Below are positions 28,134-58,695 of a stretch of 64,000 nucleotides of DNA, one piece after another. How positions within the stretch are numbered: position 1 is the stretch's first letter; every line of letters starts with the position of its first letter. Source of the DNA: Acidimicrobiia bacterium (lineage in GTDB: Bacteria > Actinomycetota > Acidimicrobiia > Acidimicrobiales > Bin134); assembly GCA_009842675.1 (NCBI GenBank), contig VYEX01000062.1:102295-166294 (forward strand), written 5' to 3'. The notes below the pieces were generated by a model. That model worked only from the letters and a program-made list of their open reading frames with translations. It was not told the origin of the DNA and ran no database searches. The translations under genes and the position numbers were made by a program.

Positions 28134-29300
28134 TCAGGCCGCCGGCGTCTCGGTGATGTCGGCGTCGAGGTCCAAGTCGAAGTACTTGGCCGGATTTTCC
28201 AGCAGCACCTTGCGAGAGATCGTCTCGTCCACCTTGGTGAAGTTCTCCTCAATGAACTCCTGGGAGTCGGGAAACGACCCCACCGAGTGGGGGAAGTCAG
28301 TTCCCCACATGATGTTGTCCCACGGGATGATGTCGACCATGTCGAACACCACCGGGTCGCGGATCACGCTGAAGTGGAAGTGGTCGAGTACCTGCTCGCT
28401 GGGTTTGCGCTCGTACTTCACCTTGAACCAATCGCCGAACAGGTCGTAGTTGTCGTCCATGAAGTAGAGCGTGCCCGGCAGCCAACTGGCGTTGGTCTCG
28501 GCGAAGTAGAACTTGATTTCCGGGAACCGCTCCAGCACGCCGGCAGCGATGAGCTGGGCCATGCAGTACACCGGGGAGTGGCTGCCAGCCCGCTGCACCA
28601 GGGCGCTGGCCCATGGGCTGTCGGACGTGCCCTTGGCTGCCGATTGCAGCGGAGCCTGACCTGCACCGAAGCCGAAATGCGGGGCCAGCTTGAGGCCCAG
28701 CTCCAGGCTCTTCTCCCAGAACCGGTCGTCCACCGGGTCGGCATAGGGGCTCCCGTTGGGGAAGTTGTAAAACGCCACGGAAGGCAGGCCGGCCTCGGCC
28801 ACGAACTCCAGTTCCTCTACCGCGTGGTCGATGTTGGTTATGGGGGTGACCGCGTTGCCAATCAGCCGGTCGGGGGCCACCGAGCAATAGTCGTGAGCCA
28901 AGAAGGTGTTGTAGGCCCGGATCATCGAGCGGTACACATCGGGGTCTTTGATTCCCTCGAGGAACCGGCTGGCAAACACCGGAGGGAACAGCACCTCGGC
29001 ATCGATGCCGTCGAGGTCTTGCTCCCGGAGGCGCTGCTCTGCGGGGCCAGCTCCCTCGGCCGGGCTGCCGTCGGCGTTGAAGTAGGTGCCGCCGGAGAAT
29101 TTCACCTTGTCGCGCCCGGCGATGTTCTGGCCGTTGCGAAGCAGGGGCTGACCCTCGATGAGCCATCCCTCTCCCCCTTCGGGAAGGTGGATGAGGCGGG
29201 GAGCTCTGTCCTTCCACCTTTCGGGGACGTACTTCACGAATACGTCGGGCGGCGTCTCCACATGCCCATCAGCGCTGATTACCTTGTACTTTCGGCCCAT
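28134..29300 (-). CDS. amidohydrolase_2 (ACMSD/metal-dependent hydrolase) family protein
   Basis: Contains VISADGHVETPP...WGTDFPHS, typical of the PF04909-type TIM-barrel hydrolases/decarboxylases. Confidence 0.75.
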   Translation of the reverse strand: MGRKYKVISADGHVETPPDVFVKYVPERWKDRAPRLIHLPEGGEGWLIEGQPLLRNGQNIAGRDKVKFSGGTYFNADGSPAEGAGPAEQRLREQDLDGIDAEVLFPPVFASRFLEGIKDPDVYRSMIRAYNTFLAHDYCSVAPDRLIGNAVTPITNIDHAVEELEFVAEAGLPSVAFYNFPNGSPYADPVDDRFWEKSLELGLKLAPHFGFGAGQAPLQSAAKGTSDSPWASALVQRAGSHSPVYCMAQLIAAGVLERFPEIKFYFAETNASWLPGTLYFMDDNYDLFGDWFKVKYERKPSEQVLDHFHFSVIRDPVVFDMVDIIPWDNIMWGTDFPHSVGSFPDSQEFIEENFTKVDETISRKVLLENPAKYFDLDLDADITETPAA

Positions 29301-42177: not shown

Positions 42178-43383
42178 ATGAGCGACCGGTACACCATCAT
42201 CTCGGCCGACTGCCACGCCGGGGCCAACCACGAGACCTACCGCGGCTACCTGGAATCCAAGTACCTCGACGACTTCGACGCTTGGCGGGACAAGTACCGC
42301 AACCCGTTCCGCGACCTCCAAGACGGTGGGCGGGTGCGCAACTGGGACAACGAGCGCCGATTGGGAGATCTGTACACCGACGGCCAGGTGGGCGAGGTGG
42401 TATTCCCCAACACCGTGCCCCCGTTCTTTCCCAGCTTCATCCTGTTCGCCCGCCCGCCCCGGGCCGACCAACTCGAACACCGCCTGGCTGGCATCCGAGC
42501 CCACAATCGCTGGCTGGCCGAATGGTGTGCGGAGTATCCCGATCAGCGAGCCGGCATCGGCCAAACCTTCTTGAACGATGTCGACGAGGCCATCAAAGAC
42601 GTGGAGTTCATCGCGGCCAACAACCTTCGCGGCGGCGTGCTCATCTCGGCCATCCCACCCGACTGCAAGGACCTCTCCCCTTTGTACGACCCGGCGTACG
42701 ACCCGTTCTGGGCCGCCTGCGAGGACCTCGGGGTGATCGTCAACAGCCACGGCGGCACCGGTGCCCCCAATTACGGCAAGTACTCGGTGGCCGACCTGTT
42801 GTTCATCACTGAGGTGAGTTTCTACTCCCATCGGCCCTTCTACCAGCTATTGCTGTCGGGGGTGTTCGAGCGTTTCCCCAAACTCAAGTTCGTTATGACC
42901 GAGCAGGGCTGTGCCTGGCTGGTGGGCGCATTGGCCCAAATGGACGAGACCCTGGCCAAGATCCGCGACACCGGCCGCATGGGCGAGATGCGCTACGACG
43001 AGAGCCACATCCTGCCCAAGAGCGCCACTGAGTACTTCCAGCAGAACTGCTGGGTGGGGATCAGCCAGCCGGGCCACGAGGACGCCGCCGCCCGCGAGGT
43101 GCTGGGGTCGCACAAAGTGATGTGGGGCTCCGACTATCCCCACAACGAGGGCACTGGTCCCTATACCCGCGAGCACCTGCGCCAGGTGTTCTGCAACACC
43201 GATCCGGTAGAGCTCCAGCAAATCCTGGCCGGCAACGCCGCCAATCTGTATGGATTCGACCTCGACGCTCTGGCCCCGCTGGCCGCCCAGCACGGACCCA
43301 CTCACGACGAGATCGCCGTGCCCCTCGATCAGTTGCCCGCTGAACCCAACGAAGCACTGCTCAAGAACGTCATTGCCGCCTGA
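42178..43383 (+). CDS. amidohydrolase_2 family protein
   Basis: Contains IISADCHAG...WGSDYPHNEG. Confidence 0.75.
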   Translation: MSDRYTIISADCHAGANHETYRGYLESKYLDDFDAWRDKYRNPFRDLQDGGRVRNWDNERRLGDLYTDGQVGEVVFPNTVPPFFPSFILFARPPRADQLEHRLAGIRAHNRWLAEWCAEYPDQRAGIGQTFLNDVDEAIKDVEFIAANNLRGGVLISAIPPDCKDLSPLYDPAYDPFWAACEDLGVIVNSHGGTGAPNYGKYSVADLLFITEVSFYSHRPFYQLLLSGVFERFPKLKFVMTEQGCAWLVGALAQMDETLAKIRDTGRMGEMRYDESHILPKSATEYFQQNCWVGISQPGHEDAAAREVLGSHKVMWGSDYPHNEGTGPYTREHLRQVFCNTDPVELQQILAGNAANLYGFDLDALAPLAAQHGPTHDEIAVPLDQLPAEPNEALLKNVIAA

Positions 43384-43484: not shown

Positions 43485-44021
43485 GTGATGAAGACTATCC
43501 CTTGGATGGCTTCGGGAGTTTCAGAGGGCGACCAGCCGATTTGGCATGGGTCCGCGACGGCTGGCGAAGTTCACCAACTGGCCAGCTTTGACGACTTGTA
43601 CCGAGATGAATACGGGCCGATGGTTCGCCTTGCCCGTGGGCTGGTGGATACCCAGGAGATCGCAGAAGAGATCGTCCAGGACGCCTTCGCCAGGGTGTAT
43701 GAGCGCTGGAATCGGCTCGACAATCCCGGCGGCTACCTGCGCACCGCGGTGGTGAACGGCGCCCGCAGCGAGCTGAGGAAACGCGAAGTGAGACGGCGCA
43801 TCGGCATTCGGCCGTTCATTCCTCCCCAACCCGAGGATCGAGACTACCTGCTCGATGCCCTAGACCAGCTCCCCCCTCGCCAGAAGACCGTCCTCGTCTT
43901 GAAGTTCTACGCCGACATGACCGAGAAAGAGATCGCCCAGGCCATAGGGGTAAGGCCGGGCACAGTCAAAAGCGCCACCTCCCGAGGACTGGCCGAGTTG
44001 CGAAAGGTGGTCGAGCAGTGA
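43485..44021 (+). CDS. ECF-family RNA polymerase sigma factor
   Basis: Region 2 is DLYRDEYGPMVRLARGLV...EEIVQDAF...YLRTAVVN. Region 4 is LPPRQKTVLVLKFYADMTEKEIAQAIGVRPGTVKS. Confidence 0.88.
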   Translation: MMKTIPWMASGVSEGDQPIWHGSATAGEVHQLASFDDLYRDEYGPMVRLARGLVDTQEIAEEIVQDAFARVYERWNRLDNPGGYLRTAVVNGARSELRKREVRRRIGIRPFIPPQPEDRDYLLDALDQLPPRQKTVLVLKFYADMTEKEIAQAIGVRPGTVKSATSRGLAELRKVVEQ

Positions 44022-45997
44022 GCGACGAGCGCCGCACCCCTGAGAACCAGACCGAAGCCGACGATCAGGCCCTCGGCGAAGCCCTGGGCTCCGCTATCCG
44101 AGGGCGGGTCGATACTCCCGCCGCTCGCCCGCCGGTGTCCTCGATCGCCGAGCGCGCCGCCGCTCGGGCCAAGGCTCGCAACACCCGACGGGCCGTTGTG
44201 GGCATCGCCGCGTCGGCTGCCCTCGTGGTGGGCGGAATCTCGGCATGGAACGCTCTGGAGGGCGACCAGCCCAATGAAGTGATCGTGGTCGATGATCCCA
44301 CTGCCTCTCCTGCGCCCCAACCGGGCACAGAACCGACTCCCGCGCCGACTTCGGAAACTCCGAGTGAGCCAGAAGACACCCCCCAGACCGGCTCCGAAGC
44401 AAGTACTGAACCTCCGACGCCGGCGATCATGTCCACTGGGCCGGCACCGGGCTGGAACGGGTTTGAGCCGACCAGCGTCTTTGGGGCTGATGTGGTTGAC
44501 GCCCACAGGTTTGCGTCGGTCGGCGACGGGCGTTTGGTAGTGCAGGCCTACAGCACCGACGGCGACCAAGTGCTGATTTCGTCCAATGGGGCCGACTGGA
44601 CGGCGATTCCAATGCCGTCATTCTTCTCCCCCGAGAGATTCGACATCGCCGGAGACCGCTGGCTGGTAACCGGTTGGGGGTACAACGAAACCGTGTCAGA
44701 ACCCCAGGCGTTCTTCTCCGACGACCAGGGAACCACGTGGACCGACCTAGCCCTCGACATCGTTTCTCCCGATGAGACTTCCCGGGTTGCCGCCGCGACA
44801 GTGTCAGGGCAGAACATGGTGATTGCCACGGAGAACCGCATCCACACCGATATCGCGTCGGTAATCGTGGCCCGGGGACTGGTGCCCGACAAAGAGTCGA
44901 TAAGGGGCTGGATGGGCGTGGAAGGCAACACGGTGAGCTTCACCCGAGACGAGTCGTCACCGCCTGAGTCATTTGAGCTGACCTCCGAAGAAGAAGATCT
45001 GCTCTACGGAGGCGATCGGGACTTTGTCCGCCTCTTCCATAGCGACGGAGGAGATGCGGAACTCGTGGCCGAGTACCAGGGCTGGAATGTTGCCGGATAC
45101 GGCGCAACCGACGGGTTCCATCTTTTGATGCTGGCCAACGAGGGGGCGCTCAAGCTCGCCTCCCCTGATGGCCGCCAATGGAGCCAAACTCCTTTGGCCA
45201 CCGGCGACGGCGTTCCCGTCGATCAACTCTCCAACTACTACGGGTCTACCAACCAGACGGTCTGGACATCCGGTGGAACGGCAAGCGACTACCGAGTTGA
45301 ACGCCTCGACGGTGTGTACACCGCCCCCCTGGTCGCTGAACTTCCCGAGGGCATCGCCCATGCGAGTCGTTTCTCGGTCGGCCCCGCGGGCGTCGCCATG
45401 GTGGCCTTGCCGGGGAGCTTCCCCGATGCGGATCTCGAGCTGAGCTTGCAGGTGGCCAAGGACGGCTACGAATTGCGCTACAACCAGCCCGAGGGCGGCT
45501 TTTCCCTTTGGGACTTGACCCAAGACATTGCCGTCTACCAGTTCGACCCCGAGAGTGAACAGGCCAACATGCTCCCCGAGGGCATTCAGGTCGTGGAAGG
45601 GGACGACGGCGATACCGAGTTGCTGATCTTTGAGGATCCCGAGACCGGTGAGCATCTGGTGTCGTTCACCAGAGAAGAACTGCAACCTTGGGCCAACGCT
45701 GAGAGCCTGTTGGCCGCACCAGAAATCAGACCCCAACAGGTTGAGGCGTGGGTGGGCTGGTCGGCCAACGGAGTCGATTGGGTATGGCAGACCCTCTCCG
45801 AAGCCTTCGGACTCACCGATCTCACCGATGTTGAGAAAGAGCTCACCAACGTTGATCTAGCCGTTGGCACTGACTATCTGATCGCCCGAGTACAGCTTGG
45901 CGTTGTCGATCCCTCCGAGACGCCCGACGACAACGGCGACGGTCCCTACTCCGTCACATATCTACCACCGCGATGGTTCATCGCCACCGTAGAATGA
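44018..45997 (+). CDS. single-pass membrane protein with extracytoplasmic Asp-box (BNR-like) beta-propeller; putative anti-sigma/sensor partner
   Basis: A 4-nt overlap links it to the sigma gene. The layout is about 65 cytoplasmic aa, a TM helix (AVVGIAASAALVVGGISAW), a PT-rich linker, then Asp-box-like repeats [25 protein letters not shown] and SANGVDWV. There is no HxxxCxxC zinc anti-sigma motif. Confidence 0.6.
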   Translation: MSDERRTPENQTEADDQALGEALGSAIRGRVDTPAARPPVSSIAERAAARAKARNTRRAVVGIAASAALVVGGISAWNALEGDQPNEVIVVDDPTASPAPQPGTEPTPAPTSETPSEPEDTPQTGSEASTEPPTPAIMSTGPAPGWNGFEPTSVFGADVVDAHRFASVGDGRLVVQAYSTDGDQVLISSNGADWTAIPMPSFFSPERFDIAGDRWLVTGWGYNETVSEPQAFFSDDQGTTWTDLALDIVSPDETSRVAAATVSGQNMVIATENRIHTDIASVIVARGLVPDKESIRGWMGVEGNTVSFTRDESSPPESFELTSEEEDLLYGGDRDFVRLFHSDGGDAELVAEYQGWNVAGYGATDGFHLLMLANEGALKLASPDGRQWSQTPLATGDGVPVDQLSNYYGSTNQTVWTSGGTASDYRVERLDGVYTAPLVAELPEGIAHASRFSVGPAGVAMVALPGSFPDADLELSLQVAKDGYELRYNQPEGGFSLWDLTQDIAVYQFDPESEQANMLPEGIQVVEGDDGDTELLIFEDPETGEHLVSFTREELQPWANAESLLAAPEIRPQQVEAWVGWSANGVDWVWQTLSEAFGLTDLTDVEKELTNVDLAVGTDYLIARVQLGVVDPSETPDDNGDGPYSVTYLPPRWFIATVE

Positions 45998-46119: not shown

Positions 46120-47280
46120 ATGATCATCGACGTGGATACCCACTGGGAGATCACGGGGGACTCGTCTGGGGTAGATCCCATGAAGCCGTGGGCCGATCAG
46201 ATACCCGACAACCGGACGCACCTGGCCAACGCCATCGCCGGCGACCTGCTCCAGGTGCTGCCCGCCGACCGCCTGCCAAGCCCGGCAGAACTGCTGCCCA
46301 AGCTCTTTGAGCGGGCCGAAGATTCGGGAGGGCCGGTAATCCTGCACCCCCGCCACGACTCCACCGCCGCCGAGCGAGTGGCGTGGATGGACTCGGTGGG
46401 AATCGACCACTGCCTGGTGAACCCTGGCGGCTACTGGCAGAAGCTCGACTACCTCCGGCCGGAAGATCGGGTGATTGCCGCCCAGCGGTGCAACGACTTC
46501 CTCACCGAGCAACTTTGGGACCAGCAGAATCGGCTCCACACAGTGGCCACCATCGACTTCTCTGATCTGGACCACGCGGTGGCTGAGCTGGAGCGGTGCC
46601 GGGATCGAGGCTCCCGGGCGTTCTTCCTCTACACCCTCCGGGGAGTACCCGCTGGCGGCCCACCCGGCCACCCAGACTGGGATCGGGTGTGGGCCGCGGC
46701 CACCTCCCTGGGCATGGTGGCGGTGATCCATGTAGGAAACACCGAGTCCGACTTCTCCAAGTGGGCCGATATCGGTTGGGATCTGCCTGAAGGAGCCGGA
46801 GTCGGTGGGCTGATCCGGCTGGCCAACACCCAGCGGCTGCACGCCGCTCAAAACCTCATCGCCAGCATGCTGTTCGGCGGGGTGTTCCACCGGTTCCCCA
46901 CCCTCACTGTGCTGGTCGAGGAGATGCGGGCAGGATGGCTGCCCTGGTATGTGGCCACATTGTCCCGCCAGTGCCTGTCGTCGCCGTCTTTGGGCGATTG
47001 GCCGTGGCCCACCAGCGGCGAGGAGATGCTCCACCGCAATCTGCGGCTCACTCCCCTGCCCGGATTCGGCGACACCGACGCCCTCGACGTGCTGGCCGCC
47101 CTACCCGACATGGTGGTGTTCTCCTCCGACTACCCCCACCAAGAGGGCAACGCCGACCCCATTGAGCTGTACCGCCCCGATCTCGATGACCTAGACGACG
47201 GCGTGAGGTCCGCGTTCATGGGAACGACCGCCGCAGAATGCTTCGCCCGAATCGGCGACCCGCTGCCTGCGGTGGGCTGA
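46120..47280 (+). CDS. amidohydrolase_2 family protein
   Basis: Contains MIIDVDTHWE...FSSDYPHQEG. Confidence 0.75.
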   Translation: MIIDVDTHWEITGDSSGVDPMKPWADQIPDNRTHLANAIAGDLLQVLPADRLPSPAELLPKLFERAEDSGGPVILHPRHDSTAAERVAWMDSVGIDHCLVNPGGYWQKLDYLRPEDRVIAAQRCNDFLTEQLWDQQNRLHTVATIDFSDLDHAVAELERCRDRGSRAFFLYTLRGVPAGGPPGHPDWDRVWAAATSLGMVAVIHVGNTESDFSKWADIGWDLPEGAGVGGLIRLANTQRLHAAQNLIASMLFGGVFHRFPTLTVLVEEMRAGWLPWYVATLSRQCLSSPSLGDWPWPTSGEEMLHRNLRLTPLPGFGDTDALDVLAALPDMVVFSSDYPHQEGNADPIELYRPDLDDLDDGVRSAFMGTTAAECFARIGDPLPAVG

Positions 47281-47293
47281 CGCTTCCTAGAAG

Positions 47294-48451
47294 TCAGCGT
47301 CCCACGGGCTGCATGTAGAAGGTGATGCCGCTGGGGGCCTCCTGCTCGGTGAGGGCATCCCGTGCTGCGGCCAGCGTCTTCCCCGCCTCGGTCTCCTCGT
47401 AGAACCAGGCCTCCGCCTGCCGTGCCCCTGGAGGTGGGCCACCGGCTAGCTCGAGAGCGGCCTCTTGGTAATAGGCCCGGATGTCGTGGGCGATTCCGAT
47501 GGTGTCCAACCGAGGGCCATAGACCTCTTTCCAGTGTTCTCCGGCGATCAGTCGCTCCAAATCAGCTAGGGCGCCGGGGACACCGTCAGGATCGATGGAA
47601 CGGCCTACTTCGGTGGCCCCCCGACGAGCTACCGCCCGGTCATAGGCGGCTCGCAGTCCCTGGGCCTCGTCCACCGACGCAGCGATTTCGGGGTCGAAAC
47701 GGGGGGGCAGCGCACAGGCCAGCGGCGCCTCAACTGCCTCCACCACTTCCGGATAGTCCACCAACACGGGACCGGAGGGGGCGTTGAGCAGATCAAATGC
47801 TGCGGCCAGCACGCCCTGTTGGAATAGGGCGTTGTCGGGCATGCCCAACGGGCGTCCCAGAGGGAACTCGCAGTACAGCACTCGGGGAACGTTCATTCGC
47901 TCAGCCACCGGCCTCATCGACGCCAGCACGACGGTGGCGATTCCAGCGTCTTCCAGTACGTGGGCCAGCACACACACGGTGCGCGTGCACAGAGGTCAAA
48001 CCGGCGTCAAGATGGCCACGTCCACTCCGTCGGCCCGCAGTTCGGCCGCGGCAGCGGGGCCTGTGTCGAGGCGCACCTCCGACACCGTGTCGGGCTGGTT
48101 GCCGGCAAACGCAACATGCCGAGGGGCCACAGCCCCGATGGTGCCGTCGGCGGCCAGTTCTTCCAAACGGTCAATGGGGTACACCACGTTGTGGTCGGAC
48201 ACATACGCAGCCCGGTCGAAATTGGAGCTCCAGTGGCCCAGGATCAGTTCCCGGTCGCTCCGATCAAGCATCCGATAGCTGGTGTCGCCCCGGCCTTCAA
48301 AGCGGTCCTGGTCCGCCCGGTGCAGCCCCGCACTAGTCACGATGGCCACGGTGGCCTGGGCCAGCGGCGGAGGCGACGCCCATGGTGTGGACTCAAACTC
48401 TGGTACCGGAAGGTTCGCCATGAGGTCGCGCATTGTCTGGTCACTCGACAT
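47294..48451 (-). CDS. GrdB/PrdB-family (glycine/sarcosine/betaine/D-proline reductase 'selenoprotein B'-like) protein with in-frame UGA (candidate selenocysteine) at 47996-47998
   Basis: ORFs 47996..48625 and 47294..47977 are in the same frame and are separated only by TGA. The read-through gives ...GVDVAILTPV-U-PLCTRTVCVLAHVLEDAGIATVV...EFPLGRPLG, which matches my recollection of the GrdB Sec region (ILTSG-U-GTCTR...ERAGIP...PLGNP). Start ATG 48451 is preceded by GGGAGAG. Confidence 0.65.
47968..47988 (-). promoter_or_regulatory. SECIS-like hairpin downstream of the GrdB-like UGA
   Basis: In the mRNA, GCACGCGC-ACCGU-GUGUGUGC forms an 8-bp stem with 2 G-U pairs. It starts 11 nt from the U of UGA. 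The loop G and U fall at nt 22-23, compared with G23/U24 in E. coli fdhF. Confidence 0.45.
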
Positions 48452-48479
48452 GCTCACACTCTCCCACAGGGCAAAGGCG

Positions 48480-49958
48480 CTACTCGCTGCTGGAGGGAAA
48501 GGCTCTCCGTTGCTGCTCGGCGTAGCGGGCACGAACCTCTCTGCCATCGATTCCAGGCGGGGGTTCCACAAGCGTTCCCAGACCGAGCGGCCAGTCGGCT
48601 GCCACATCGGTCGGATGGCGGCCACTCGCCACCGCGGCGGCCTGCACCGCGGCCCCTAGGGCAACCGTCTCATCGTCGTCAGGCACCATGATCGGCTCGC
48701 TGTGCAGCACTGCCGCTCGCACCCGATAAGCGACCGAGCGAGCACCGCCGCCGATGAGATGCAATCGCCCACTGGATTCCACACCAGCGCTCCGCAAGGC
48801 ATCGAGACCTTCGAACAGCCCGCAGAGCACGCCATCGTGGGCGGCCAGGGCCAGCTCCTCGCGGGTGGTGTCGTTTCGCAGGGCAGCCAATACACCCGTG
48901 GCATCGGGCAGGTCGGGGGTGCGCTCTCCGTCGAAGTAGGGCACCAGCACCGGTGCGGTCGCATTTTCGGGCGCGGCCAGCGCCAGCGCGGCCAGTTCCA
49001 CCGCGTCCACCCCCAGCCAGTGGGACACAGTGTCGGTGACCCGTGTGGCGTTGAGCGTGCACACCAATGGCAAATAGCCACCAGCGGCGTCGGCGAATCC
49101 GGCTACCGCGCCTGTCGGGTCGCTGGTCGGCGTGGTGGAAACGGAATAGGCCGTGCCGGAGGTACCCAGCGAGATCACTGTGTCGCCGGACTTCAACCCG
49201 AGTCCGAGGGCCGCTCCCATGTTGTCGCCGGTACCGGGGCCGACGAGCACTGAGTCGCCCAATCCCAGCGCGGCCGCCGCTTTCGGTGTAATTGGCCCAG
49301 CCGCCTGATCAGACTCGAGCACCCGGGGCAGACGAGGCAGCCAGCCGTTCGGATCGCCCACGGCCAACCCCAGCAGATCTGGGGCAACCTCATTGGCGGC
49401 GGGATCGAACCAACCGGTGCCCGAGGCGTCGCCTCGGTCGGTGACATGAGCGCCTGTCAGCCGCCAAGTGAGCCAGTCATGGGGCAGCATGACTTGAGCG
49501 ATCCGGTCAGCCAGTTCGGGCTCATGCTTGAGCACCCAGGCCAGCTTGGCAATGGTGAACGACGCCAACGGCACCGAACCGCAGCGCCGGGCCCACTGCT
49601 CGCGACCATGGCGGGCTACCAGGTCTCGGGCCTGGGGCGCGGAAGTGGTGTCGTTCCACAGCTTGGCCGGGCGCAGAGCCTCACCGTCCTCGCCTACCAG
49701 CACCAGGCCGTGCTGCTGGCCGGCCACGCTCACTGCCACAACATTGGCCCGGTCGGCATCGGTCAATTGGGCAAAGCAGGCCGACAGCGCTTCCCACCAA
49801 GTTGCCGGATCTTGCTCGCTTACCGGCGGCTCCCAGAGCGAGTGGGTGTGCGGGGCGCTGGTCCGGTCAACCAGCAGACCGGAGTCGAGTTCTCGCAGTT
49901 CTACCTTTGCGGACTGAGTGGAAGAATCCACCCCGGCCACCAATGCACGGCCAACCAT
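48480..49958 (-). CDS. xylB: xylulokinase (FGGY family)
   Basis: 492 aa with VAGVDSSTQS...GTGDN...LIGGGARS. Lies directly downstream of xylA. Confidence 0.85.
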   Translation of the reverse strand: MVGRALVAGVDSSTQSAKVELRELDSGLLVDRTSAPHTHSLWEPPVSEQDPATWWEALSACFAQLTDADRANVVAVSVAGQQHGLVLVGEDGEALRPAKLWNDTTSAPQARDLVARHGREQWARRCGSVPLASFTIAKLAWVLKHEPELADRIAQVMLPHDWLTWRLTGAHVTDRGDASGTGWFDPAANEVAPDLLGLAVGDPNGWLPRLPRVLESDQAAGPITPKAAAALGLGDSVLVGPGTGDNMGAALGLGLKSGDTVISLGTSGTAYSVSTTPTSDPTGAVAGFADAAGGYLPLVCTLNATRVTDTVSHWLGVDAVELAALALAAPENATAPVLVPYFDGERTPDLPDATGVLAALRNDTTREELALAAHDGVLCGLFEGLDALRSAGVESSGRLHLIGGGARSVAYRVRAAVLHSEPIMVPDDDETVALGAAVQAAAVASGRHPTDVAADWPLGLGTLVEPPPGIDGREVRARYAEQQRRAFPSSSE

Positions 49959-50025: not shown

Positions 50026-51363
50026 TCAGTTCGGCGTGGACCAGATGATGCGGTTGACCTCATTTTCCAGTCGTTCCTGGCGCCCCGACACCGGCTGGGG
50101 GTCGAGCCCATCGGCAACCGCCTGATCGGCTAGCGCGGCAAGGTCCACATCACCCTTCAGGATCTCGGCGCCCAGTCCTGAGTCCCAACGGGCATAGCGG
50201 TCGGCCCGGGCCTGCTCGATGGCCCCGTCGGCCAGCATGGCCTCCGCCACCAGCAGAGAGCGGGCCAGTGTGTCGATGCCGCCGATGTGGCCCCAGAACA
50301 GGTCATCTCTGGCCATACTCTGGCGCCTGAGCTTTGTGTCGAAGTTGAATCCGCCGGTGGTGAATCCCCCGCCTCGCAAGATCTCATAGAGAGCCAGCGA
50401 GAGCTCGTCCACCGAGTTGGGGAACTGGTCGGTGTCCCAACCGTTCTGGGGATCGCCTCGGTTGGCGTCCACGCTGCCGAAGATTCCGTTGTCCACCGCA
50501 TAGGCCACCTCGTGGTGGAAGGAATGGCCCGACAAGGTGGCGTGGTTCACCTCGATGTTCACCTTGAACTCGTCGACTAGGTCGTAGCGATCCAAGAACC
50601 CGTGAACCGAGGCACAGTCGTAGTCGTACTGGTGCTTGGTGGGCTCCTGGGGCTTGGGCTCGATGAGCAAAGTGCCGGTGAAGCCGATCTTGTGCTTGTG
50701 CTCGGCCACCATGGTCAGGAAGCGGGCGAGCTGGTCGGCCTCTTGGCGCAGCCGGGTGTTAAGCAGCGTCTCGTAGCCCTCCCGCCCTCCCCACAGCACA
50801 TAGTTGGCCCCGTCTAGGCGGTGGGTGGCCTCCAGCATGTGGCGAACCTGGGCCGCGGCGTGGGTGAACACTTCGGGGTCGGGATTGGTGGCCGCTCCGG
50901 CGGCGTAGCGGGAATGGGAGAACAGGTTGGCCGTGCCCCACAGCAGCCGCACACCGGTGGCCTCCATCTTTTCCGCAGCCCGCTCCACCATGGTGTCGAG
51001 ATTGGCCCGGCTCTCGCTTAGATCTGCGCCTTCCGGGGCCATGTCCACATCGTGGAAGCAGTAAAACGGCGTCCCCAGCTTCTCGAAGAACTCGAACGCG
51101 GCATCCTGCTTGGCCCGGGCGGCGGCCATCGGGTCCTGTCCCGGCTCCAGCCAGGGGCGGTCGAACGTGCCGTGGCCGAATATGTCGCTGCCCGGCCAAT
51201 TGAAGCTGTGCCAGTAGCACACCGCTATCCGCAGGTGGTCCTCCATGCGCCTACCCACGACCTGGCGGTCGGGGTCGTACACCCGGTAGGCCAGTTGGCC
51301 AAGCCCCGCTCGACGGCCGGCAAAGGCCACCGGCTCGGGAACGGTGTCGAAGAAGTCAGTCAT
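50026..51363 (-). CDS. xylA: xylose isomerase
   Basis: 445 aa. Contains [37 protein letters not shown] and NIEVNHATL. Confidence 0.95.
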
Positions 51364-51499
51364 AGTGAGCCTCCGTCATAGCGCCGTCGCTGCCATCGCC
51401 GAGTCTAAAGATTGCCTCTTGCAGCCGCCCGATCACCGGCTGATTGTCCGTGTACGCTTACGGGGTTGACATCACGTATCAAGCATGAGAGGCGGGTCC

Positions 51500-53197
51500 A
51501 TGTCTTTTCCTTCTGACCTTGAGATCGCCCGCGGGGCGAACCTCCGACCACTAACCGAAATCGCCGAAGAAGCCGGCATCCCGGTCGAGATGCTGGAGCC
51601 CTACGGGGCAGGGGCGGCCAAGATCAGCCTGGATGCGATTGAGGCTCTGTCTGATCGGCCCCGAGCCCGCTACGTGGTGGTGACCGCCATCACCCCAACG
51701 CCATTGGGCGAGGGCAAAACCACCACCACCGTGGGGCTGGGTCAAGGATTCGGGCACATCAACAAGAAGGCGACCATCGCCATCCGCCAGCCCTCACTGG
51801 GGCCGACGTTCGGCATCAAGGGCGGTGCCGCCGGCGGCGGCTACAGCCAGGTGGTGCCCATGGAGCTGTTCAACCTCCACCTCACCGGTGACATGCACGC
51901 GGTGACCGCGGCCCACAACATGTGCTCGGCCATGCTGGATGCCCACATCTACCACGGCAACGAATCAGGCCTGGATCTGCACAACATCACCTGGCGCCGG
52001 GTGGTGGACATCAACGACCGGGCGCTGCGCAACATCGTGCTCGGTCTGGGCGGTCGGCTCGACGGTATCCCTCGGGAGAGCGGATTCGACATCACCGCGG
52101 CATCGGAGGTGATGGCCACCCTGGCGCTGGCTACATCTCTATCCGACTTGCGGGCCCGTTTGGGACGCACCGTGGTGGGCTATACCAAAGCTGGCGATCC
52201 GGTGACCGCGGAGGACTTGAAGGCCGCCGGGGCCATGGCCGTTTTGCTGAAGGACGCCCTCAAGCCCAACCTCATGCAAACCCTGGAGGGTGGCCCCGCC
52301 CTGGTGCACACCGGGCCGTTCGGCAACATCGCCACCGGCAACTCCTCCATCGTGGCCGACCGAATCGCCATCCACACCGGCGACTTCTTGGTAACCGAGG
52401 CCGGATTCGGCGCCGACATGGGGGCTGAGCGCTTCTTCAACATCAAGTGCCGCTACTCGGGCTTGGCCCCCGACGCCGCGGTGATGGTGGCCACCGTGCG
52501 GGGGCTGAAGGCCCATTCCGGCAACCACCGCATTGTCGCCGGGCGTCCCCTGCCAGAGGCGCTGCTGGCCGAGAACCCCGACGAGGTGCACGCTGGAGGA
52601 GACAACCTCCGCAAGCAGCTCTCCAACATGAAGGCTCACGGGGTGACCCCGGTGGTGGCCATCAACGCCTTCCCCGGCGACCACGATGCCGACTTGGCCG
52701 CCATCGGCGAGATCGCCGACGAGTACGGCGCCCGCTGTGCGATCACCACCCACTTCTCCGACGGCGGCGCGGGGGCGGCCCAGTTGGCCGAGGCGGTGGC
52801 CGAGGCCTGCGAGGAGCCCAGCTCGTTCAAGGTGCTGTACGAGGATGATCTGTCGCTCAAGGACAAGATCGCCGCGGTAGCCACCACGGTGTATGGCGCC
52901 GACGACGTGGAGTATTCAGCCACGGCCAACCGCCAGCTCGACACCTACGAGAATGCCGGTTTCGGCCACCTCCCGGTGTGCATAGCCAAGACCCACTTGT
53001 CCATCTCGTCCGACCCCTCCCTCAAGGGCGCTCCTACAGGCTGGACCCTGCCGGTGCGGGAGGTGCGGGCCTCGGTGGGCGCAGGGTTCGTCTACCCCAT
53101 CTGCGGCGATATGCGCACCATGCCCGGCCTCGGCCGCCAACCCGCCGCCATGGGCATCGACCTCGACGAGAACGGAGAAATCGTCGGCCTGAGCTAG
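51500..53197 (+). CDS. fhs: formate--tetrahydrofolate ligase
   Basis: Contains SDLEIA...VTAITPTPLGEGKTTTTVGL...GPTFGIKGGAAGGGY... Start taken at MSFPSD. Confidence 0.95.
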   Translation: MSFPSDLEIARGANLRPLTEIAEEAGIPVEMLEPYGAGAAKISLDAIEALSDRPRARYVVVTAITPTPLGEGKTTTTVGLGQGFGHINKKATIAIRQPSLGPTFGIKGGAAGGGYSQVVPMELFNLHLTGDMHAVTAAHNMCSAMLDAHIYHGNESGLDLHNITWRRVVDINDRALRNIVLGLGGRLDGIPRESGFDITAASEVMATLALATSLSDLRARLGRTVVGYTKAGDPVTAEDLKAAGAMAVLLKDALKPNLMQTLEGGPALVHTGPFGNIATGNSSIVADRIAIHTGDFLVTEAGFGADMGAERFFNIKCRYSGLAPDAAVMVATVRGLKAHSGNHRIVAGRPLPEALLAENPDEVHAGGDNLRKQLSNMKAHGVTPVVAINAFPGDHDADLAAIGEIADEYGARCAITTHFSDGGAGAAQLAEAVAEACEEPSSFKVLYEDDLSLKDKIAAVATTVYGADDVEYSATANRQLDTYENAGFGHLPVCIAKTHLSISSDPSLKGAPTGWTLPVREVRASVGAGFVYPICGDMRTMPGLGRQPAAMGIDLDENGEIVGLS

Positions 53198-53262
53198 CAA
53201 GGGTCGAGGCCGTGCGGGACAGATAGGCTTAATCGACCTCAGGGTGCCTCTGGGGGAAAGGG

Positions 53263-55188
53263 GTGTTTATGGCGAGGCGGGAACGTTTGACCGTGCCGAT
53301 GGTGCGGGACAACGGGAGCCTGCGAGAAGCGACGTGGGACGAGGCCCTGTCACGGGCCGCGACCGGGTTCAACCAGGTGCTCGAACAGCATGGACCACAG
53401 GCGTTCGGGATGTTCAGCTGCTCCAAGGCCACCAACGAGATGAACTACATCGCCCAGAAGTTCATCCGCACGGTGGTGGGCTCCAACAACATCGACTCCT
53501 GCAACCGAACTTGACACGCTCCTTCGGTCGTCGGTCTGGCGACAGTGTTCGGAGCGGGAGGGGGCACGAGCTCCTATCAGGAGATTGAGGAGGCCGACCT
53601 GATCCTCCTGTGGGGGTCCAACGCCCGCGAGGCCCATCCCATCTTCTTCCATCACCTGCTAAAGGGCATCGACAACGGTGCCCGCATGTACTGCGTCGAC
53701 CCCCGCTACACCTCCTCGGCCCAATTCTCCGACGTGTGGGTGGGCATCGACGTGGGCACCGACATCGCCCTAGCCAACGGCATCGGCCGGGAGATCATCT
53801 ACGCCGGTTTGGCCAACCAAGACTTCATCGACCACTCCACCCAGGGATTCGAGGCCTACGCCGCCTCTGTGGAGCCGTTCACCCCCGACGCGGTGGCCGA
53901 CATCTGCGGCATCCCCGCCGAGGTGGTGGTGGAGATGGCCCACGCCTACGCCACCGCTGATACCGCTCAAATCTTGTGGACCCTGGGCATCACCGAGCAC
54001 CACAACGCGGTGGACAATGTGCTGTCACTGTGCAATCTGGCTCTGCTCACCGGCCATGTGGGTCGGTGGGGGTCGGGGCTGGTGCCACTGCGGGGTCAGA
54101 ACAACGTGCAGGGCGGCGGCGACATGGGGGCCATCCCCAACAAATTTCCCGGATTCGCCAGCGTGGACGACCCCGACCATCGGGGCCGTTTCGAGGCCGC
54201 CTACGGTCGGGAGCTCAACCCGGTGCCCGGTTGGCACCTCACGCTGATGTTCGAAGCCATGGAGCGGGGCGACCTGAGGGCGCTGTATGTGATCGGCGAG
54301 AACCCCGCCGATTCCGAGGCCGATGTGGCTCACGCCCGGGCCCAAATGGAAGGCCTGGACATCTTGGTGGTGCAGGACATTCTGATGACCCGCACCGCGG
54401 AGATGGCCGACGTGGTGCTGCCCGCATCGGTGGCCTGGGCAGAGAGCGACGGCACCGTGACCTCCAGCGAGCGCAGGGTGCAGCGAGTGCGGCCTGCGGT
54501 TTCGCCCCCCGGCCAGGCTCGTCACGACATCGACATCTTGTGCGATATGGCCGTGGCCATGGGCGCCGAACTCGGTCCTCGCGACCCGGAGGCCGCCTGG
54601 GACGAGCTGCGCTCTCTGTCGGCTATGCACGGGGGCATGGCCTGGGAGCGCTTGGAAGCTGCTGGCGGTTTGCAATGGCCATGTCCCGACGAGGACCACC
54701 CCGGCAGTGTTTTCCTCCACGGCTGGCTGTGGGCTGACGATCTGGAGGGCCGCGACCCGGCTCCGTTCTCGGTGCTGGAACACGAGGGGCCGACTGAAGA
54801 ATTGAGCGAGGAGTTTCCCCTGCGGCTCACCACCGGGCGGGCGCTGGACTCCTACAACACCGGGGTGCAGAGCGGGAACTACGACTCGCCGCTGCGGTTT
54901 GCCGGGTTGGATCTCAATCCGACCGATGCCGCCGACTTGGGCATTGCCGACGGTGACCGGGTGCGAGTGTCCTCCCCACGGGGTTCAGTGGAGATGAATG
55001 TCCGGCTGGTATCGAGCCTGCCGACAGGGTTGGCCTTCACCACTTTGCACCACCCTGAGTTGATCGACGTGAACGTGCTCACCAACCCCGACTGGGACCC
55101 GAAATCCGGCACCGCCGAGTTCAAGGCGGCAGCGGTGCGGGTTGAGCTGGTCGATGCCCCCGAGACCGCGGGGGCCACCGTTGGCTGA
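53263..55188 (+). CDS. fdhA: formate dehydrogenase catalytic (Mo/W-bis-PGD) subunit, selenocysteine at 53512-53514; lacks the usual N-terminal Fe-S domains
   Basis: ORFs 53263..53514 and 53545..55188 are in frame across a TGA. The context NNIDSCNRT-U-HAPSVVGLATVFG parallels E. coli FdhF NNVDCCARV-U-HGPSV. Downstream MopB motifs and a C-terminal molybdopterin dinucleotide-binding domain are present. Confidence 0.88.
53527..53543 (+). promoter_or_regulatory. bacterial SECIS apical hairpin of fdhA
   Basis: GUCGUC-GGUCU-GGCGAC puts the loop G and U at nt 23-24 from the UGA, with the same GGUCU loop sequence as the E. coli fdhF SECIS. A possible lower stem pairs GCUCC (53518) with GGAGC (53551). 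Confidence 0.7.
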
Positions 55189-56932
55189 CCTCCACTTCGG
55201 CGACGATCAGCCCACTGAAGCCGAGTTGGCCGCCATCGACGCCATCGTCTCCCCAGCCGATGCCGCCACTGTCACCGAGACTGAACGGGTCGTGCGCGGA
55301 GGTCGCATCCGGCGCCAGGGACTGCGCCATTTGCTCCTGCCGGTGTTGCATTCGCTTCAGCATGAAATCGGCTGGATCAGCCCTGGTGGTTTGAACGGCG
55401 CCGCCAAGCGGCTGGGGGTGCCGCCCGCCGAGGCCTATGGCGTGGCCACGTTCTATGAACTGCTGCGCACGACCGACCCCGGACACACCAATGACGCGGT
55501 CCACGTGTGCGTCGACCCGTCGTGTGCTCTGGCCGGCAACGAAGAGCTGCGGGAGTCGCTGGAGGCCAGCGGCGCCAAGGTCCACAACAGCCCGTGCCTC
55601 GGTCAGTGCGAACGCGCCCCTGCGCTGTTTGTCCAGGGAGTAGGGCGACCCGACCGGGTGCCGGCTGACGATGACGAGGACTTCCGTTTGCCCCAAGCGG
55701 GCGACCCAGGACTGCGGGTGCTCAGCCGGGTTGGGGTGGTGGATTCAACCTCTTTGGACTCCTACCGGGAACATGGTGGCTATCAGGCGTTGGCTTCTGC
55801 CATCGAAATGGGGCCTGATGCGGTGATCTCAGCCATCTCCGACTCCGGCCTGTCGGGGCGGGGTGGGGCGGCGTTTCCCACTGGCATCAAGTGGCGGGCT
55901 GTCGCCGACGAACCCGGTCCGGACAAGCACGTGGTGGCCAACTGCGACGAGTCGGAACCCGGCACCTTCAAAGACAGGATCTTGTGCGAACACGACCCTT
56001 TCGCGGTCATCGAGTCAATGACAATCGCTGGGCTGGCTACTGGGTCTCCCCACGGGTGGATCTACATCCGAGGCGAATACCCCCGAGCTACCGCCCGACT
56101 AGAGGGAGCCATCGCCCAAGCCCGGGCCGCGGGCCTGTTGGGAGACGACGTGGCCGGCAGTGGTCAGCGATTCGACATCGAGCTTCGCCGAGGGGCAGGG
56201 GCCTACATCTGCGGTGAGGAGACGGCGCTCTTCAATTCCATCGAGGGCTTCCGGGGCGAGCCCCGCAACAAGCCCCCCTTCCCCACCACGCATGGTCTGT
56301 TCAACCAGCCCACCGCCATCAACAATCCCGAGACCCTGATCAACGTTCTCGACATCGTGACCAACGGCCCCGACGCCTACCGCTCGGTGGGCACCGAGCG
56401 CTCCCCCGGCACCCGGCTGTTCTGCCTGTCGGGCCGAATAGGAGTGCCCGGCCTCTACGAAGTGCCGTTCGGCACCACGCTGGGCGAGTTGATTGAGCTG
56501 GCCGGAGGGTCGGTCGGCTCGCTGGCCGCGGTATTGCTGGGGGGCGCGGCCGGAGTGTTTGTCGGTTCTGACGCCCTGGATATGCCCCTTACCTTGGAGG
56601 ATGCCCGGGAGGCCGGGGCCACCCTGGGTTCAGGCGTGGTCACCGTGTTCGACGACACCGTGGACATGGAGGCGGTGGTCGTCCGCATCGCCGAATTCTT
56701 CCGGGACGAGTCGTGCGGCCAGTGTGTGCCCTGCCGGGTCGGCACCCAGCGCCAGCACGAGGTGCTCGTGGAGCTGCAAGGCTCCGGGCAGGCGCTCACC
56801 CCCCAGCGAGCCGAGCTGATCGACGACATGGCCCTGGCCATGGTGGATGCCTCCATCTGCGGTCTCGGGCACACCGCGGCCTCCGCGGTGCGCTCCGCGA
56901 TCGACCTGGGCCTGATAGGAAATAGCTCGTGA
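55154..56932 (+). CDS. NAD-dependent formate dehydrogenase diaphorase subunit, NuoE-like/NuoF-like fusion
   Basis: The N-terminal 2Fe-2S thioredoxin-like part has CVDPSC...CLGQC. The NuoF core has GRGGAAFPTG.KW, NCDESEPGTFKDR and ESCGQCVPCR. The start is ambiguous among TTG 55142, ATG 55154 and TTG 55181. Confidence 0.88.
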   Translation: MPPRPRGPPLADLHFGDDQPTEAELAAIDAIVSPADAATVTETERVVRGGRIRRQGLRHLLLPVLHSLQHEIGWISPGGLNGAAKRLGVPPAEAYGVATFYELLRTTDPGHTNDAVHVCVDPSCALAGNEELRESLEASGAKVHNSPCLGQCERAPALFVQGVGRPDRVPADDDEDFRLPQAGDPGLRVLSRVGVVDSTSLDSYREHGGYQALASAIEMGPDAVISAISDSGLSGRGGAAFPTGIKWRAVADEPGPDKHVVANCDESEPGTFKDRILCEHDPFAVIESMTIAGLATGSPHGWIYIRGEYPRATARLEGAIAQARAAGLLGDDVAGSGQRFDIELRRGAGAYICGEETALFNSIEGFRGEPRNKPPFPTTHGLFNQPTAINNPETLINVLDIVTNGPDAYRSVGTERSPGTRLFCLSGRIGVPGLYEVPFGTTLGELIELAGGSVGSLAAVLLGGAAGVFVGSDALDMPLTLEDAREAGATLGSGVVTVFDDTVDMEAVVVRIAEFFRDESCGQCVPCRVGTQRQHEVLVELQGSGQALTPQRAELIDDMALAMVDASICGLGHTAASAVRSAIDLGLIGNSS

Positions 56933-57768
56933 GCCCTGCTGTCACCGAGACTGCGGTCACCATCCGGGTCGACGGCCAAGAAGTGGCCGTGCCCGAAGGA
57001 GCCACCATCCTGGATGCCTGCGACGCCGCGGGCATCGATACCCCCACCATCTGCTACGGCCCCACCCTCACCCCGGTAAACGTGTGCCGGGTGTGCGTCG
57101 TGGAGCTGGACGGCAGCCGGGCCCTGGTCCCCTCCTGCTCCCGCCCTGCCGAGGAGGGCATGGTGGTCCACACCGACAGCGAGCGGGTCCGCCACAGCCG
57201 CAAGATGGTCATTGAATTCTTGGCCACCGGTGTCGACGTGTCCCAGGCCAATGAGCTGGGCCAGTGGGCCGAGCACTACGGGGCCGACCCTCACCGCCAC
57301 GTCCCCGGCGGCGAGACCATGAACGAGCCGGTGCGGGTACAGGACAACCTCTACATCCGGGACTACGACAAGTGCGTGCTGTGCTACCGCTGCGTAGAGG
57401 CCTGCGGCGACGACGCCCAGCACACCTACGCCATCTCGGTGGCCGGCCGGGGCTTCGGCGCCCGCATCTCCACCGAGTTCGACGTGACCCTCCCCGACTC
57501 GGCCTGCGTGTACTGCGGCAACTGCGTGGCGGTCTGCCCCACCAACGCCCTCCAGTTCAAGACCGAGTTCGACCTCCGTGAGGAGGGCGACTGGCGCCCC
57601 GAGGACCAAACCGTGACCCAAACCGTGTGCTCCTACTGCGGCGTGGGCTGCAACCTCGAACTCCACGTGCAGGACAACCAGATCGTCAAATGCACCTCCC
57701 CCGACGACCACGACGTCACCCGAGGCAACCTCTGCATCAAAGGCCGCTTCGGCTGGAACTACGTGTGA
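56929..57768 (+). CDS. NuoG-like Fe-S module of formate dehydrogenase alpha (2Fe-2S, 4Fe-4S ferredoxin clusters and the MopB-type 4Fe-4S domain) as a separate ORF
   Basis: Contains ICYGP...CRVCVV..., CVLCYRCVEAC, CVYCGNCVAVCP and then CSYCGVGCNLELHV...GNLCIKGRFG immediately before the stop. The GTGA overlap links it to the preceding gene. Confidence 0.85.
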   Translation: MSPAVTETAVTIRVDGQEVAVPEGATILDACDAAGIDTPTICYGPTLTPVNVCRVCVVELDGSRALVPSCSRPAEEGMVVHTDSERVRHSRKMVIEFLATGVDVSQANELGQWAEHYGADPHRHVPGGETMNEPVRVQDNLYIRDYDKCVLCYRCVEACGDDAQHTYAISVAGRGFGARISTEFDVTLPDSACVYCGNCVAVCPTNALQFKTEFDLREEGDWRPEDQTVTQTVCSYCGVGCNLELHVQDNQIVKCTSPDDHDVTRGNLCIKGRFGWNYV

Positions 57769-57837
57769 TGCTCTCCCCTCCCGAAGCGGATTGGGAGCGT
57801 CCTTCGACCACCAATCATCACAACTAAGTTGGGGGCG

Positions 57838-58695
57838 ATGACTGCTATCAAACTCGACGGCGAAATGCTGTCAGCTGAAATCAAAGAGGGCCTGCGCGAG
57901 CGGATCGCCGCGCTGGCCGAGAAGGGCGTGACCCCGGGGTTGGGCACGCTGTTGGTGGGCGACGACGGGCCGTCGGCCAACTATGTGGCCATGAAGCACC
58001 GCGACAGCGAGGAGCTGGGAATGGGTTCTCGGGAGGTCCACCTCCCTGCTGATGCGTCCCAGGAAGAGGTCGACGCCGTGGTGGACGACTTCAACGCCGA
58101 TCCGGCGGTGGACGCCTACATCATGCAGTACCCCTTCCCAGACCATCTTGACTACGAGACAGCCTTGTTGCGGGTGCTGCCTGAGAAGGATGCCGATGGG
58201 CTCCATCCGGTGAACCTGGGACGGTTGGTGCAGGGGGTGGACGCACCTCTGGCCTGCACTCCTCGGGGCATCCAGTTGATGCTGGAGCGCTACGAGATCC
58301 CAATCGCCGGCCAGCACGTGGTGATCATCGGGCGGGGGCTTACCATCGGCCGGCCGTTGGCCAACTTGTTGTCGCTGAAGCGGCCCAACGCCAACGCCGC
58401 AGTCACCGTGGTCCACACCGGGGCGGGCGACATCTCCCGCTATACCAAGAACGCCGACATCCTCATTGCCGCGGCCGGGGCGCCCCGCATGGTGAAGGCC
58501 GACATGGTCAAGCCCGGCGCAGCGGTGGTGGCCGCCGGGGTGAGCTTTGCCGACGGAAAGTTGGTGTCGGATGTGGACGACGACGTGGCAGAGGTAGCGG
58601 GCTGGCTTTCGCCGCGAATCGGCGGCGTGGGGCCGATGACCCGTACCATGCTTATGGCCAACACCGTGGCCGCCGCCGAACGGGCCGTGGGCTGA
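57838..58695 (+). CDS. folD: bifunctional methylenetetrahydrofolate dehydrogenase/methenyltetrahydrofolate cyclohydrolase
   Basis: Contains LVGDDGPSANYVAMK...DADGLHPVNLGRL...CTPRG...VVIIGRG..IGRPLA...GGVGPMT. Confidence 0.93.
   Translation: MTAIKLDGEMLSAEIKEGLRERIAALAEKGVTPGLGTLLVGDDGPSANYVAMKHRDSEELGMGSREVHLPADASQEEVDAVVDDFNADPAVDAYIMQYPFPDHLDYETALLRVLPEKDADGLHPVNLGRLVQGVDAPLACTPRGIQLMLERYEIPIAGQHVVIIGRGLTIGRPLANLLSLKRPNANAAVTVVHTGAGDISRYTKNADILIAAAGAPRMVKADMVKPGAAVVAAGVSFADGKLVSDVDDDVAEVAGWLSPRIGGVGPMTRTMLMANTVAAAERAVG

Follow-up and report, generated by a model that had tools for sequence, protein, structure and literature searches.

Canonical PrdB and GrdB are selenocysteine (Sec) proteins with UxxC or UxxCxxC motifs, and their genes lie in prd and grd operons. 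In a survey of Sargasso Sea selenoproteins, Zhang, Fomenko & Gladyshev 2005 (PMC1088965) found 'Proline reductase PrdB', with 42 genes, to be one of the most abundant. Zhang & Gladyshev 2008 (PMC2398784) counted 235 Sec and 110 Cys forms of 'PrdB' in the GOS marine set, where it again ranks among the most abundant. Here we describe a relative of these proteins in a 64,000-nucleotide stretch of an Acidimicrobiia bacterium (GenBank assembly GCA_009842675.1, contig VYEX01000062.1, positions 102,295 to 166,294), referred to below as the window. Two open reading frame (ORF) fragments on its minus strand form, in our confident view, one gene for a 385-residue selenoprotein, in which UGA at codon 152 is read as Sec and which belongs to a stand-alone PrdB-like subfamily. 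The selenoprotein family itself is not new, having been predicted computationally in 2005, and the window gene is a new, mis-annotated member of it. The existence of the selenoprotein is therefore no discovery; its biochemical role and the misnomer that it carries are the points of interest. The features of the gene are as follows.

47294..48451, minus strand: PrdB-like selenoprotein, full read-through ORF of 385 residues plus stop; the N-terminus aligns with full-length homologues
47996..47998, minus strand: in-frame UGA, codon 152, the proposed Sec codon in the motif U-P-L-C
47964..47988, minus strand: SECIS-like hairpin (RNAalifold consensus), with lower pairs G11-C35 and C12-G34
48459..48465, minus strand: Shine-Dalgarno-like GGGAGAG, 7 nt 5' of the ATG and within the 28-nt gap after the FGGY kinase stop; read from the sequence

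The start ATG is at 48449-48451 and the terminal stop TGA at 47294-47296, and translation from 48451 to 47294 gives 385 sense codons with a single internal TGA. The read-through product runs ...DGVDVAILTPV-U-PLC-TRTVCVLAHVLEDAGIATV...FPLGRPLGMP..., with ...DVAILTPV-U-PLC-TRTVCVLAH... around the proposed Sec, and the tryptic peptide across the predicted site would be ADGVDVAILTPV-U-PLCTR. ORF callers stop at the TGA and report two pieces, of 151 and 227 residues, and the same split is seen in relatives. An earlier reading made from the sequence alone (the sequence-only reading) had noted two same-frame pieces separated by TGA 47996-47998, and both the translation and the ORF listing agree with it. 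UGA is the commonest stop in the window, ending 39 of the 57 called genes, the selenoprotein gene included; it is therefore not reassigned in the source organism.

The in-frame TGA is conserved among relatives. We sampled one genome per GTDB species and obtained 80 related loci at 58-66% identity, mostly from Acidimicrobiia, with five from Chloroflexota/Dehalococcoidia. All 80 have TGA at codon 152, with both flanks kept in frame as protein, and the TGA is also retained in four loci of ~90% identity. The nearest database proteins (60-92% identity), from Acidimicrobiia, Ca. Poriferisocius and other sponge-associated metagenome-assembled genomes (MAGs), are nearly all 227-residue fragments that begin just after the TGA, and full-length homologues of 380-420 residues appear only at about 50% identity. 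In 22 such full-length homologues (43-57% identity), the column of the TGA holds Cys in 17, Gly in four and Ser in one, and C155 is invariant. The segment P-L-C-T-R-T must be translated in frame because it precedes any restart codon and matches the CPxCxRT of the Cys forms. The sequence-only reading had placed the UGA in a U-x-x-C redox motif as a Sec codon and had named a homologue alignment and a search for frameshifts or other stops in relatives as ways to challenge this. The proposal withstood both: the aligned column is mostly Cys, with few Gly or Ser, and the 80 relatives show the identical TGA and no frameshifts.

Part of the family departs from this pattern. Gly (as in LGPMCTRTVC) or Ser occupies the Sec/Cys column, with the second Cys kept, in five homologues (P0027, P0041, P0064, P0079 and P0012; alignment A1). 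The first redox residue has therefore been lost in part of the family and is not indispensable in every branch. In a Solirubrobacterales MAG (L090, JBOGYZ010000333.1), two Cys-form paralogues, P0081 and P0083, lie ~7 kb apart and flank an ABC transporter, a P450 and a short-chain dehydrogenase/reductase (SDR).

Downstream of the TGA, the coding sequence folds into a hairpin that resembles a bacterial selenocysteine insertion sequence (SECIS). We derived the consensus fold with RNAalifold on the window and 79 loci, and number nucleotides from the U of the UGA as nt 1. The upper stem begins 11 nt after the UGA and has six base pairs, GCGCAC (nt 15-20, 47979-47984) with GUGUGC (nt 26-31, 47968-47973), closed by the apical loop CGUGU (nt 21-25, 47974-47978) in which G22 and U23 are unpaired. 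Across the family this 6-bp register is paired in 100% of 468 cells. One pair, labelled 27-37, occurs as U-A 39 times, as C-G 37 times and as U-G twice, and is never broken; the covariation score of the pairs was reached by none of 500 shuffles, and the covarying pair changed state at least eight times on a neighbour-joining protein tree. The switch between U-A and C-G couples the third position of an Arg codon (CGU/CGC, synonymous) to the first position of a Thr/Val codon. The loop is always N-G-U-N-N (CGUGA in 64, CGUGU in 10, GGUCU in four and CGUGG in two). In addition, the third-position entropy of conserved degenerate codons falls to 0-0.5 bit at codons 156-162 vs ~1.5 bit elsewhere (Mann-Whitney p = 0.0008). 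Cys-form genes lack the hairpin, with four of six and two of six pairs in the same register. The position of the stem-loop, the G and U in its loop, its conservation in Sec forms and its absence from Cys forms are those expected of a bacterial SECIS, whose stem-loop should lie within about 11-40 nt 3' of the UGA. Sister subfamilies from the Sargasso Sea keep the 11-nt spacer, the 6-bp stem and the NGUNN loop (CCAGAC-CGUGA-GUCUGG and CCAGAC-GGUCG-GUCUGG) and add three pairs that are altered on both sides. This covarying minimal SECIS (11-nt spacer, 6-bp stem, NGUNN loop) could seed a covariance model for finding further genes.

Two longer registers were tried and rejected. The sequence-only reading had described an 8-bp hairpin that starts 11 nt after the UGA and presents a loop GU at nt 22-23. 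The loop GU stands, as G22 and U23 are left in the loop by either register, but the 8-bp register fits this window only: family-wide it is 76% paired, one of its pairs is broken in 64 of the 78 sequences and it shows no covariation, whereas the relatives back six base pairs. A 9-bp triloop register is 84% paired across the family, again with no covariation. We also scanned the window for other sites that combine a TGA with a hairpin, and only the selenoprotein gene and fdhA were credible. A third candidate, at 28128, is the ordinary stop of a zinc-type alcohol dehydrogenase gene (27006-28130, plus strand), followed in the same frame by a 433-codon open frame and a small hairpin with a GU loop. 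We judge it to be a chance look-alike of a Sec site because a real Amidohydro_2 gene lies antisense to that open frame.

The fdhA gene lies 5.5 kb from the selenoprotein gene.

53269..55188, plus strand: FdhA-like molybdopterin subunit, with in-frame TGA 53512-53514 (CNRT-U-HAPSV)

Its TGA, which the sequence-only reading had taken as that of a bona fide Sec gene, is kept in relatives and is followed after 12 nt by the hairpin GUCGUC-GGUCU-GGCGAC, whose 6-bp stem is comparable to that of the selenoprotein hairpin. NCBI records call fdhA as one product of 639 residues. A Sec-type fdhA in the window and in relatives provides indirect support for Sec decoding by the organism. In two relatives (L082/L083, JAPOQC010000075.1 and MKWU01000123.1), fdhA is called across its TGA, and 5 kb from it the PrdB-like gene is broken into a piece of 151 residues with a Pfam GRDB match and one of 227 residues without a Pfam match, named 'hypothetical protein' by NCBI. 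The annotation gap for the PrdB-like family thus looks systematic. Pipelines split the gene in two, and therefore hundreds of Acidimicrobiia and Chloroflexota genomes carry a mis-called selenoprotein.

The read-through protein has two domains.

47789..48373, minus strand: PrdB-like alpha/beta domain, residues 27-221, with U152, invariant C155 and the FPLGRPLG motif (TIGR04483, Pfam GRDB)
47297..47788, minus strand: family-specific, mostly helical C-terminal domain, residues 222-385 (164 residues), with no Pfam match

For profile searches, we placed C at residue 152. Pfam GRDB (PF07355) matched with 42.6 bits (E = 6.5e-11), above its gathering threshold of 22, over residues 10-149. This match corresponds to profile positions 202-345 of 347, which puts the end of the model some two positions short of the Sec, and PF07355 is also carried by the N-terminal fragment of orthologues. 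The NCBIfam PrdB model TIGR04483 matched residues 27-221 (profile 24-217 of 238) collinearly through the UxxC site, with 137.7 bits (E = 4e-40) against an equivalog cut-off of 300. TIGR01918, of the selenoprotein-B subfamily, gave 57.7 bits against a cut-off of 65.45, and its match was limited to profile positions 201-398, in the C-terminal half of a model of ~430 residues. The GrdF, GrdH and GrdB models of NCBIfam likewise matched through their C-terminal halves only, collinear across the Sec site. The proposed assignment to the GrdB/PrdB family is thus well founded, as Pfam GRDB and NCBIfam matches of PrdB and GrdB type cover the site. Judged by these hidden Markov model scores against their cut-offs, the selenoprotein is a member of the GRDB superfamily that lies outside the curated PrdB and selenoprotein-B groups. 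It is very likely that the locus is a genuine gene of the PrdB/GrdB reductase superfamily that encodes selenocysteine and has been cut in two by gene callers.

No Pfam model matched the C-terminal domain, residues 222-385, in which the homologue alignment shows a near-invariant C246 (PLxCxLPP) and an invariant W349. When this domain alone was searched with phmmer against 1.84 billion representative proteins, 210 matches were found. In full-length proteins of ~380-420 residues the match sits at ~220-380, and the other matches are mostly fragments. Among five odd-length matches scanned with Pfam, there was no credible foreign partner domain, and one looked chimeric. By these sequence comparisons the C-terminal domain is private to this family. 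An AlphaFold2 model of the Cys homologue P0017 (pLDDT 94.2, pTM 0.92) consists of an alpha/beta domain and, after it, an all-helical one with helices at 258-374, and places the CxxC between a beta-strand and a helix N-terminus. A sequence-profile search of the PDB gave no matches, and a Foldseek search of the P0017 model against the PDB gave nothing at E <= 1e-3. The marine surveys (2005, 2008) discuss neither the extra C-terminal domain, nor the missing PrdA, nor the lumping of subfamilies, and a literature search on the family's separate architecture or function, as 'PrdB-like' or in Acidimicrobiia, found nothing specific.

We looked for partner genes in the window and in related loci. The 28-64 kb part of the window encodes amidohydrolases, ABC-2 transporter parts, an ECF (extracytoplasmic function) sigma factor, xylA2-like and FGGY genes, fhs, the split FdhA, a NuoF-like protein, FolD, a thiolase, a luciferase-like oxidoreductase and an acyl-CoA dehydrogenase, and holds no Prd, Grd or thioredoxin gene. 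The neighbourhoods of the 80 loci were called with a codon-usage-scored gene caller, as long antisense ORFs mislead a longest-ORF approach. No neighbour family is conserved across these species loci, and the genes around them were not scanned one by one for Prd or Grd families. In seven further loci with Pfam-annotated flanks, three of them with a common gene order, no Prd or Grd family is listed. Hence the absence of Grd, PrdA and thioredoxin genes, already remarked from the sequence alone, holds for 28-64 kb of the window and is matched by the lack of any conserved partner across the 80 loci. The commonest nearby family is acyl-CoA ligase-like (AMP-dependent, assigned by eye) and occurs in 25 of the 80 loci, though not at a fixed position; ligases of this kind are frequent in these genomes. 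Other frequent neighbours, also assigned by eye and not by profile, are TetR, SDR, enoyl-CoA hydratase and sulfatases, again at varying positions. Cys forms adjoin similarly varied catabolic genes.

Several observations weigh against a Sec-encoding gene of this kind. No selA, selB or selD domain was found by Pfam in the ~41 of 57 called genes scanned, the ~16 unscanned genes lying mostly at 0-27 kb, and the search for tRNA-Sec came up empty both in the fetched loci and in the window, which has no tRNA at all. As no sel genes turned up in the scanned part, the Sec machinery is deduced only from fdhA. Rfam gave no SECIS match, either at the gathering threshold over the whole window or under permissive settings at 47900-48060. 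As a single sequence, the hairpin folds no more stably than shuffled sequence (z = 0.13-0.19); we relied on comparative evidence because single-sequence energies are uninformative in GC-rich coding sequence. In addition, four homologues have Gly and one has Ser at the Sec column. Finally, Sec insertion is a prediction from sequence, and the chemistry is suggested only by analogy; the PDB searches found neither a solved structure nor a structural neighbour.

One alternative is that the TGA is a true stop, either in a decaying pseudogene or in a split gene of 151 and 227 residues whose second part restarts at a GTG 18 nt downstream. Gene callers and public annotations treat the TGA in this way, and a conserved TGA would by itself also fit a stable split gene. 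Yet a decaying gene is hard to reconcile with one identical stop kept in 80 species without frameshifts. A restart at the GTG would omit P153-T158, including the invariant C155, which matches the motif of the Cys forms. Moreover, the in-frame GTG is GTC in the Chloroflexota loci, so that the restart codon is absent there, and no Shine-Dalgarno motif is evident. The TGA also takes the very column in which full-length homologues have Cys, and a covarying hairpin of SECIS geometry follows it. We regard a true stop as highly improbable. Alternatively, the UGA might be read through without Sec, by near-cognate insertion of Trp or Cys that the hairpin stimulates. Our data are sequence data, and a downstream hairpin can stimulate generic read-through. 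Against this, the site pairs with the Cys of homologues in a redox U/CxxC motif, and the hairpin has the spacing and GU loop of a SelB-dependent SECIS and resembles the hairpin of the nearby Sec-type fdhA. The family was also independently predicted as a selenoprotein. Such read-through therefore seems extremely improbable.

A further possibility accepts the Sec but takes the protein as a genuine B subunit of D-proline reductase (PrdB) or of glycine, sarcosine or betaine reductase (GrdB/F/H), with its partners (PrdA/GrdE, GrdA, GrdCD, PrdC and the thioredoxin system) elsewhere in the genome. PrdB is indeed the best NCBIfam match, JGI labels homologues 'D-proline reductase (dithiol) PrdB', and selenoproteome surveys file the family under PrdB. 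Nevertheless, the PrdB score is far under the equivalog cut-off, and the selenoprotein-B score falls under that of a broad subfamily. The GrdB N-terminal half is lacking, and a private domain of 164 residues is added. Canonical prd and grd genes are operonic, whereas here there is no Prd or Grd gene in 28-64 kb or in the seven annotated flanks and no conserved neighbour in the 80 loci. We consider it very unlikely that the protein is such a subunit. The family is a stand-alone subfamily, widespread in Acidimicrobiia and found in some Chloroflexota, and not the B subunit of D-proline or glycine/betaine/sarcosine reductase. With a C-terminal domain of its own and without Prd or Grd partners around its gene, the subfamily is almost certainly misnamed, in functional terms, as 'proline reductase PrdB'.

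For the stand-alone selenoprotein, we propose the following mechanism. UGA152 would be decoded as selenocysteine during translation, with the mRNA hairpin 11 nt downstream (6-bp stem, N-G-U-N-N loop) recruiting SelB with Sec-tRNA(Sec), as an E. coli fdhF-type SECIS does. Sec152 and the invariant Cys155 would form a U-x-x-C pair between a beta-strand and a helix N-terminus. By analogy with PrdB and GrdB, the Sec might act as the nucleophile, and the resulting Sec152-Cys155 selenenyl-sulfide may then be re-reduced by a cellular thiol or reductase system. Going further, we tentatively suggest that this 385-residue protein, the 'PrdB' found in Acidimicrobiia, in Chloroflexota and in the open ocean, is a self-contained selenoenzyme, in which the U-x-x-C domain and the private helical domain with its near-invariant Cys work without a pyruvoyl partner in a novel reductive reaction; we rate its chances a little short of even. 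If so, one of the most abundant marine selenoprotein families would represent a new enzyme class. As a speculation, the enzyme could cleave a C-X bond reductively beside a carbonyl or thioester, an idea prompted by the acyl-CoA ligases, CoA-transferases, enoyl-CoA hydratases, SDRs and sulfatases with which the gene is loosely, but not conservedly, associated.

In the window, the selenoprotein gene stands last in an apparent three-gene unit.

50026..51363, minus strand: xylose-isomerase-like TIM-barrel gene (XylA2 type), first of the apparent three-gene unit (Pfam AP_endonuc_2; XylA2_C recorded for an orthologue)
48480..49958, minus strand: FGGY-family sugar kinase, xylB-like (Pfam FGGY_N, FGGY_C); context only

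The selenoprotein ATG lies 28 nt after the TAG of the kinase gene on the same strand, as the sequence-only reading had pointed out. This position is correct, but the linkage is limited to relatives of ~90% identity: the order xylA2, kinase, selenoprotein and convergent amidohydrolase is kept only in sponge-associated relatives, and the xylA2-kinase synteny is not kept across the 80 loci. No promoter-like or terminator-like site was found between the three genes of the window, so co-transcription with the sugar genes is plausible but lineage-specific. The linkage to xylAB is probably incidental.

Three Amidohydro_2 (PF04909) paralogues lie within 20 kb, at 28134-29300 (minus), 42178-43383 (plus) and 46120-47280 (plus). 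One of the three converges on the selenoprotein gene, and just 13 nt separate the two stop codons. At 43485-45997 (plus), the gene for an ECF-type sigma factor of 178 residues overlaps by 4 nt that of a 659-residue protein without a Pfam match, which may be an anti-sigma factor or partner of the sigma factor. The pair is conserved in the relatives of ~90% identity. On the other side of the sugar genes, a C1-metabolism cluster at 51485-58695 (plus) includes a split, permuted formate dehydrogenase, in which the Sec-type FdhA catalytic part at 53269-55188 is without the N-terminal Fe-S domains. Its other members are the following.

51485-53197, plus strand: fhs
55142-56932, plus strand: NuoF-like flavoprotein
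56929-57768, plus strand: 279-residue protein with Fer2_4, Fer4 and Molybdop_Fe4S4 domains
57838-58695, plus strand: FolD

The hairpin can be compared with the SECIS of E. coli fdhF, in which the minimal upper stem-loop reportedly begins 11 nt after the UGA and presents G23 and U24 in its loop, a description attributed to Liu et al. 1998 and Huttenhofer et al. 1996. Like SECIS elements of the fdhF type, the hairpin of the window gene lies inside the coding sequence, starts its stem 11 nt after the UGA and has an unpaired G and U in the apical loop. Unlike them, it has a shorter stem (6 + 2 bp), no bulged U was identified, and no Rfam model matched.

With canonical PrdB (Clostridium sticklandii/C. 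difficile, TIGR04483), the protein shares a homologous alpha/beta domain and a UxxC motif, here with a proposed Sec. It differs in its length of 385 residues against ~240, in its private C-terminal domain, and in having no prdA, prdC, prdD, prdE or prdF neighbours. No association with prdA, prdC, prdD/E or proline racemase was found in 28-64 kb of the window or in the seven annotated flanks. The hosts also differ, being Acidimicrobiia and Chloroflexota MAGs here and Stickland-fermenting clostridia for canonical PrdB. With GrdB, GrdF and GrdH (PF07355, TIGR01917/TIGR01918), it shares the Pfam GRDB match above cut-off that ends beside the Sec, but only the C-terminal half of these ~435-residue models is matched (profile 200-402). 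The motif is U-PL-C-TRTV-C (UxxCxxxxC/S), in contrast to the UxxCxxC of GrdB, and its third Cys is Ser in most Sec forms. Unlike the genes of the glycine reductase complex, the gene has no grdA, grdC, grdD, grdE, trxA or trxB in the annotated window region, and none is conserved in the related loci.

The closest described system is the marine 'PrdB' family. AACY01584242, an orthologous sequence that the Sargasso supplement (PMC1088965) lists as a predicted selenoprotein under 'Proline reductase PrdB', is 50% identical to the window protein over 167 residues (E = 4e-52), covering both the Sec motif and the C-terminal domain, and reads VVLLTPVuPLCTRTV...FPLGRPLGKP...SGPVLVDYPE...PLSCAIPP. A second supplement sequence, AACY01202822, is the only Sargasso entry under 'Glycine reductase selenoprotein B' and resembles a further short PrdB-like protein, with ~160 residues before the Sec, the motif VLLVPN-U-PVCHQTV and the hairpin CCAGAC-CGUGA-GUCUGG in the geometry of the window gene. 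The PrdB and GrdB labels of the Sargasso survey lump several orphan subfamilies. The four traits by which the marine 'PrdB' family is recognized, a TGA in a UxxC motif, pfam07355 homology, Cys homologues and a SECIS-like hairpin, are all present in the window gene. Like the marine 'PrdB' selenoproteins (PMC1088965, PMC2398784), it combines the UxxC motif and pfam07355 with Sec and Cys forms and with the SECIS geometry of its sisters. We see no essential difference from this family, of which the window gene is a new member in a lineage closest to sponge-associated MAGs (Ca. Poriferisocius).

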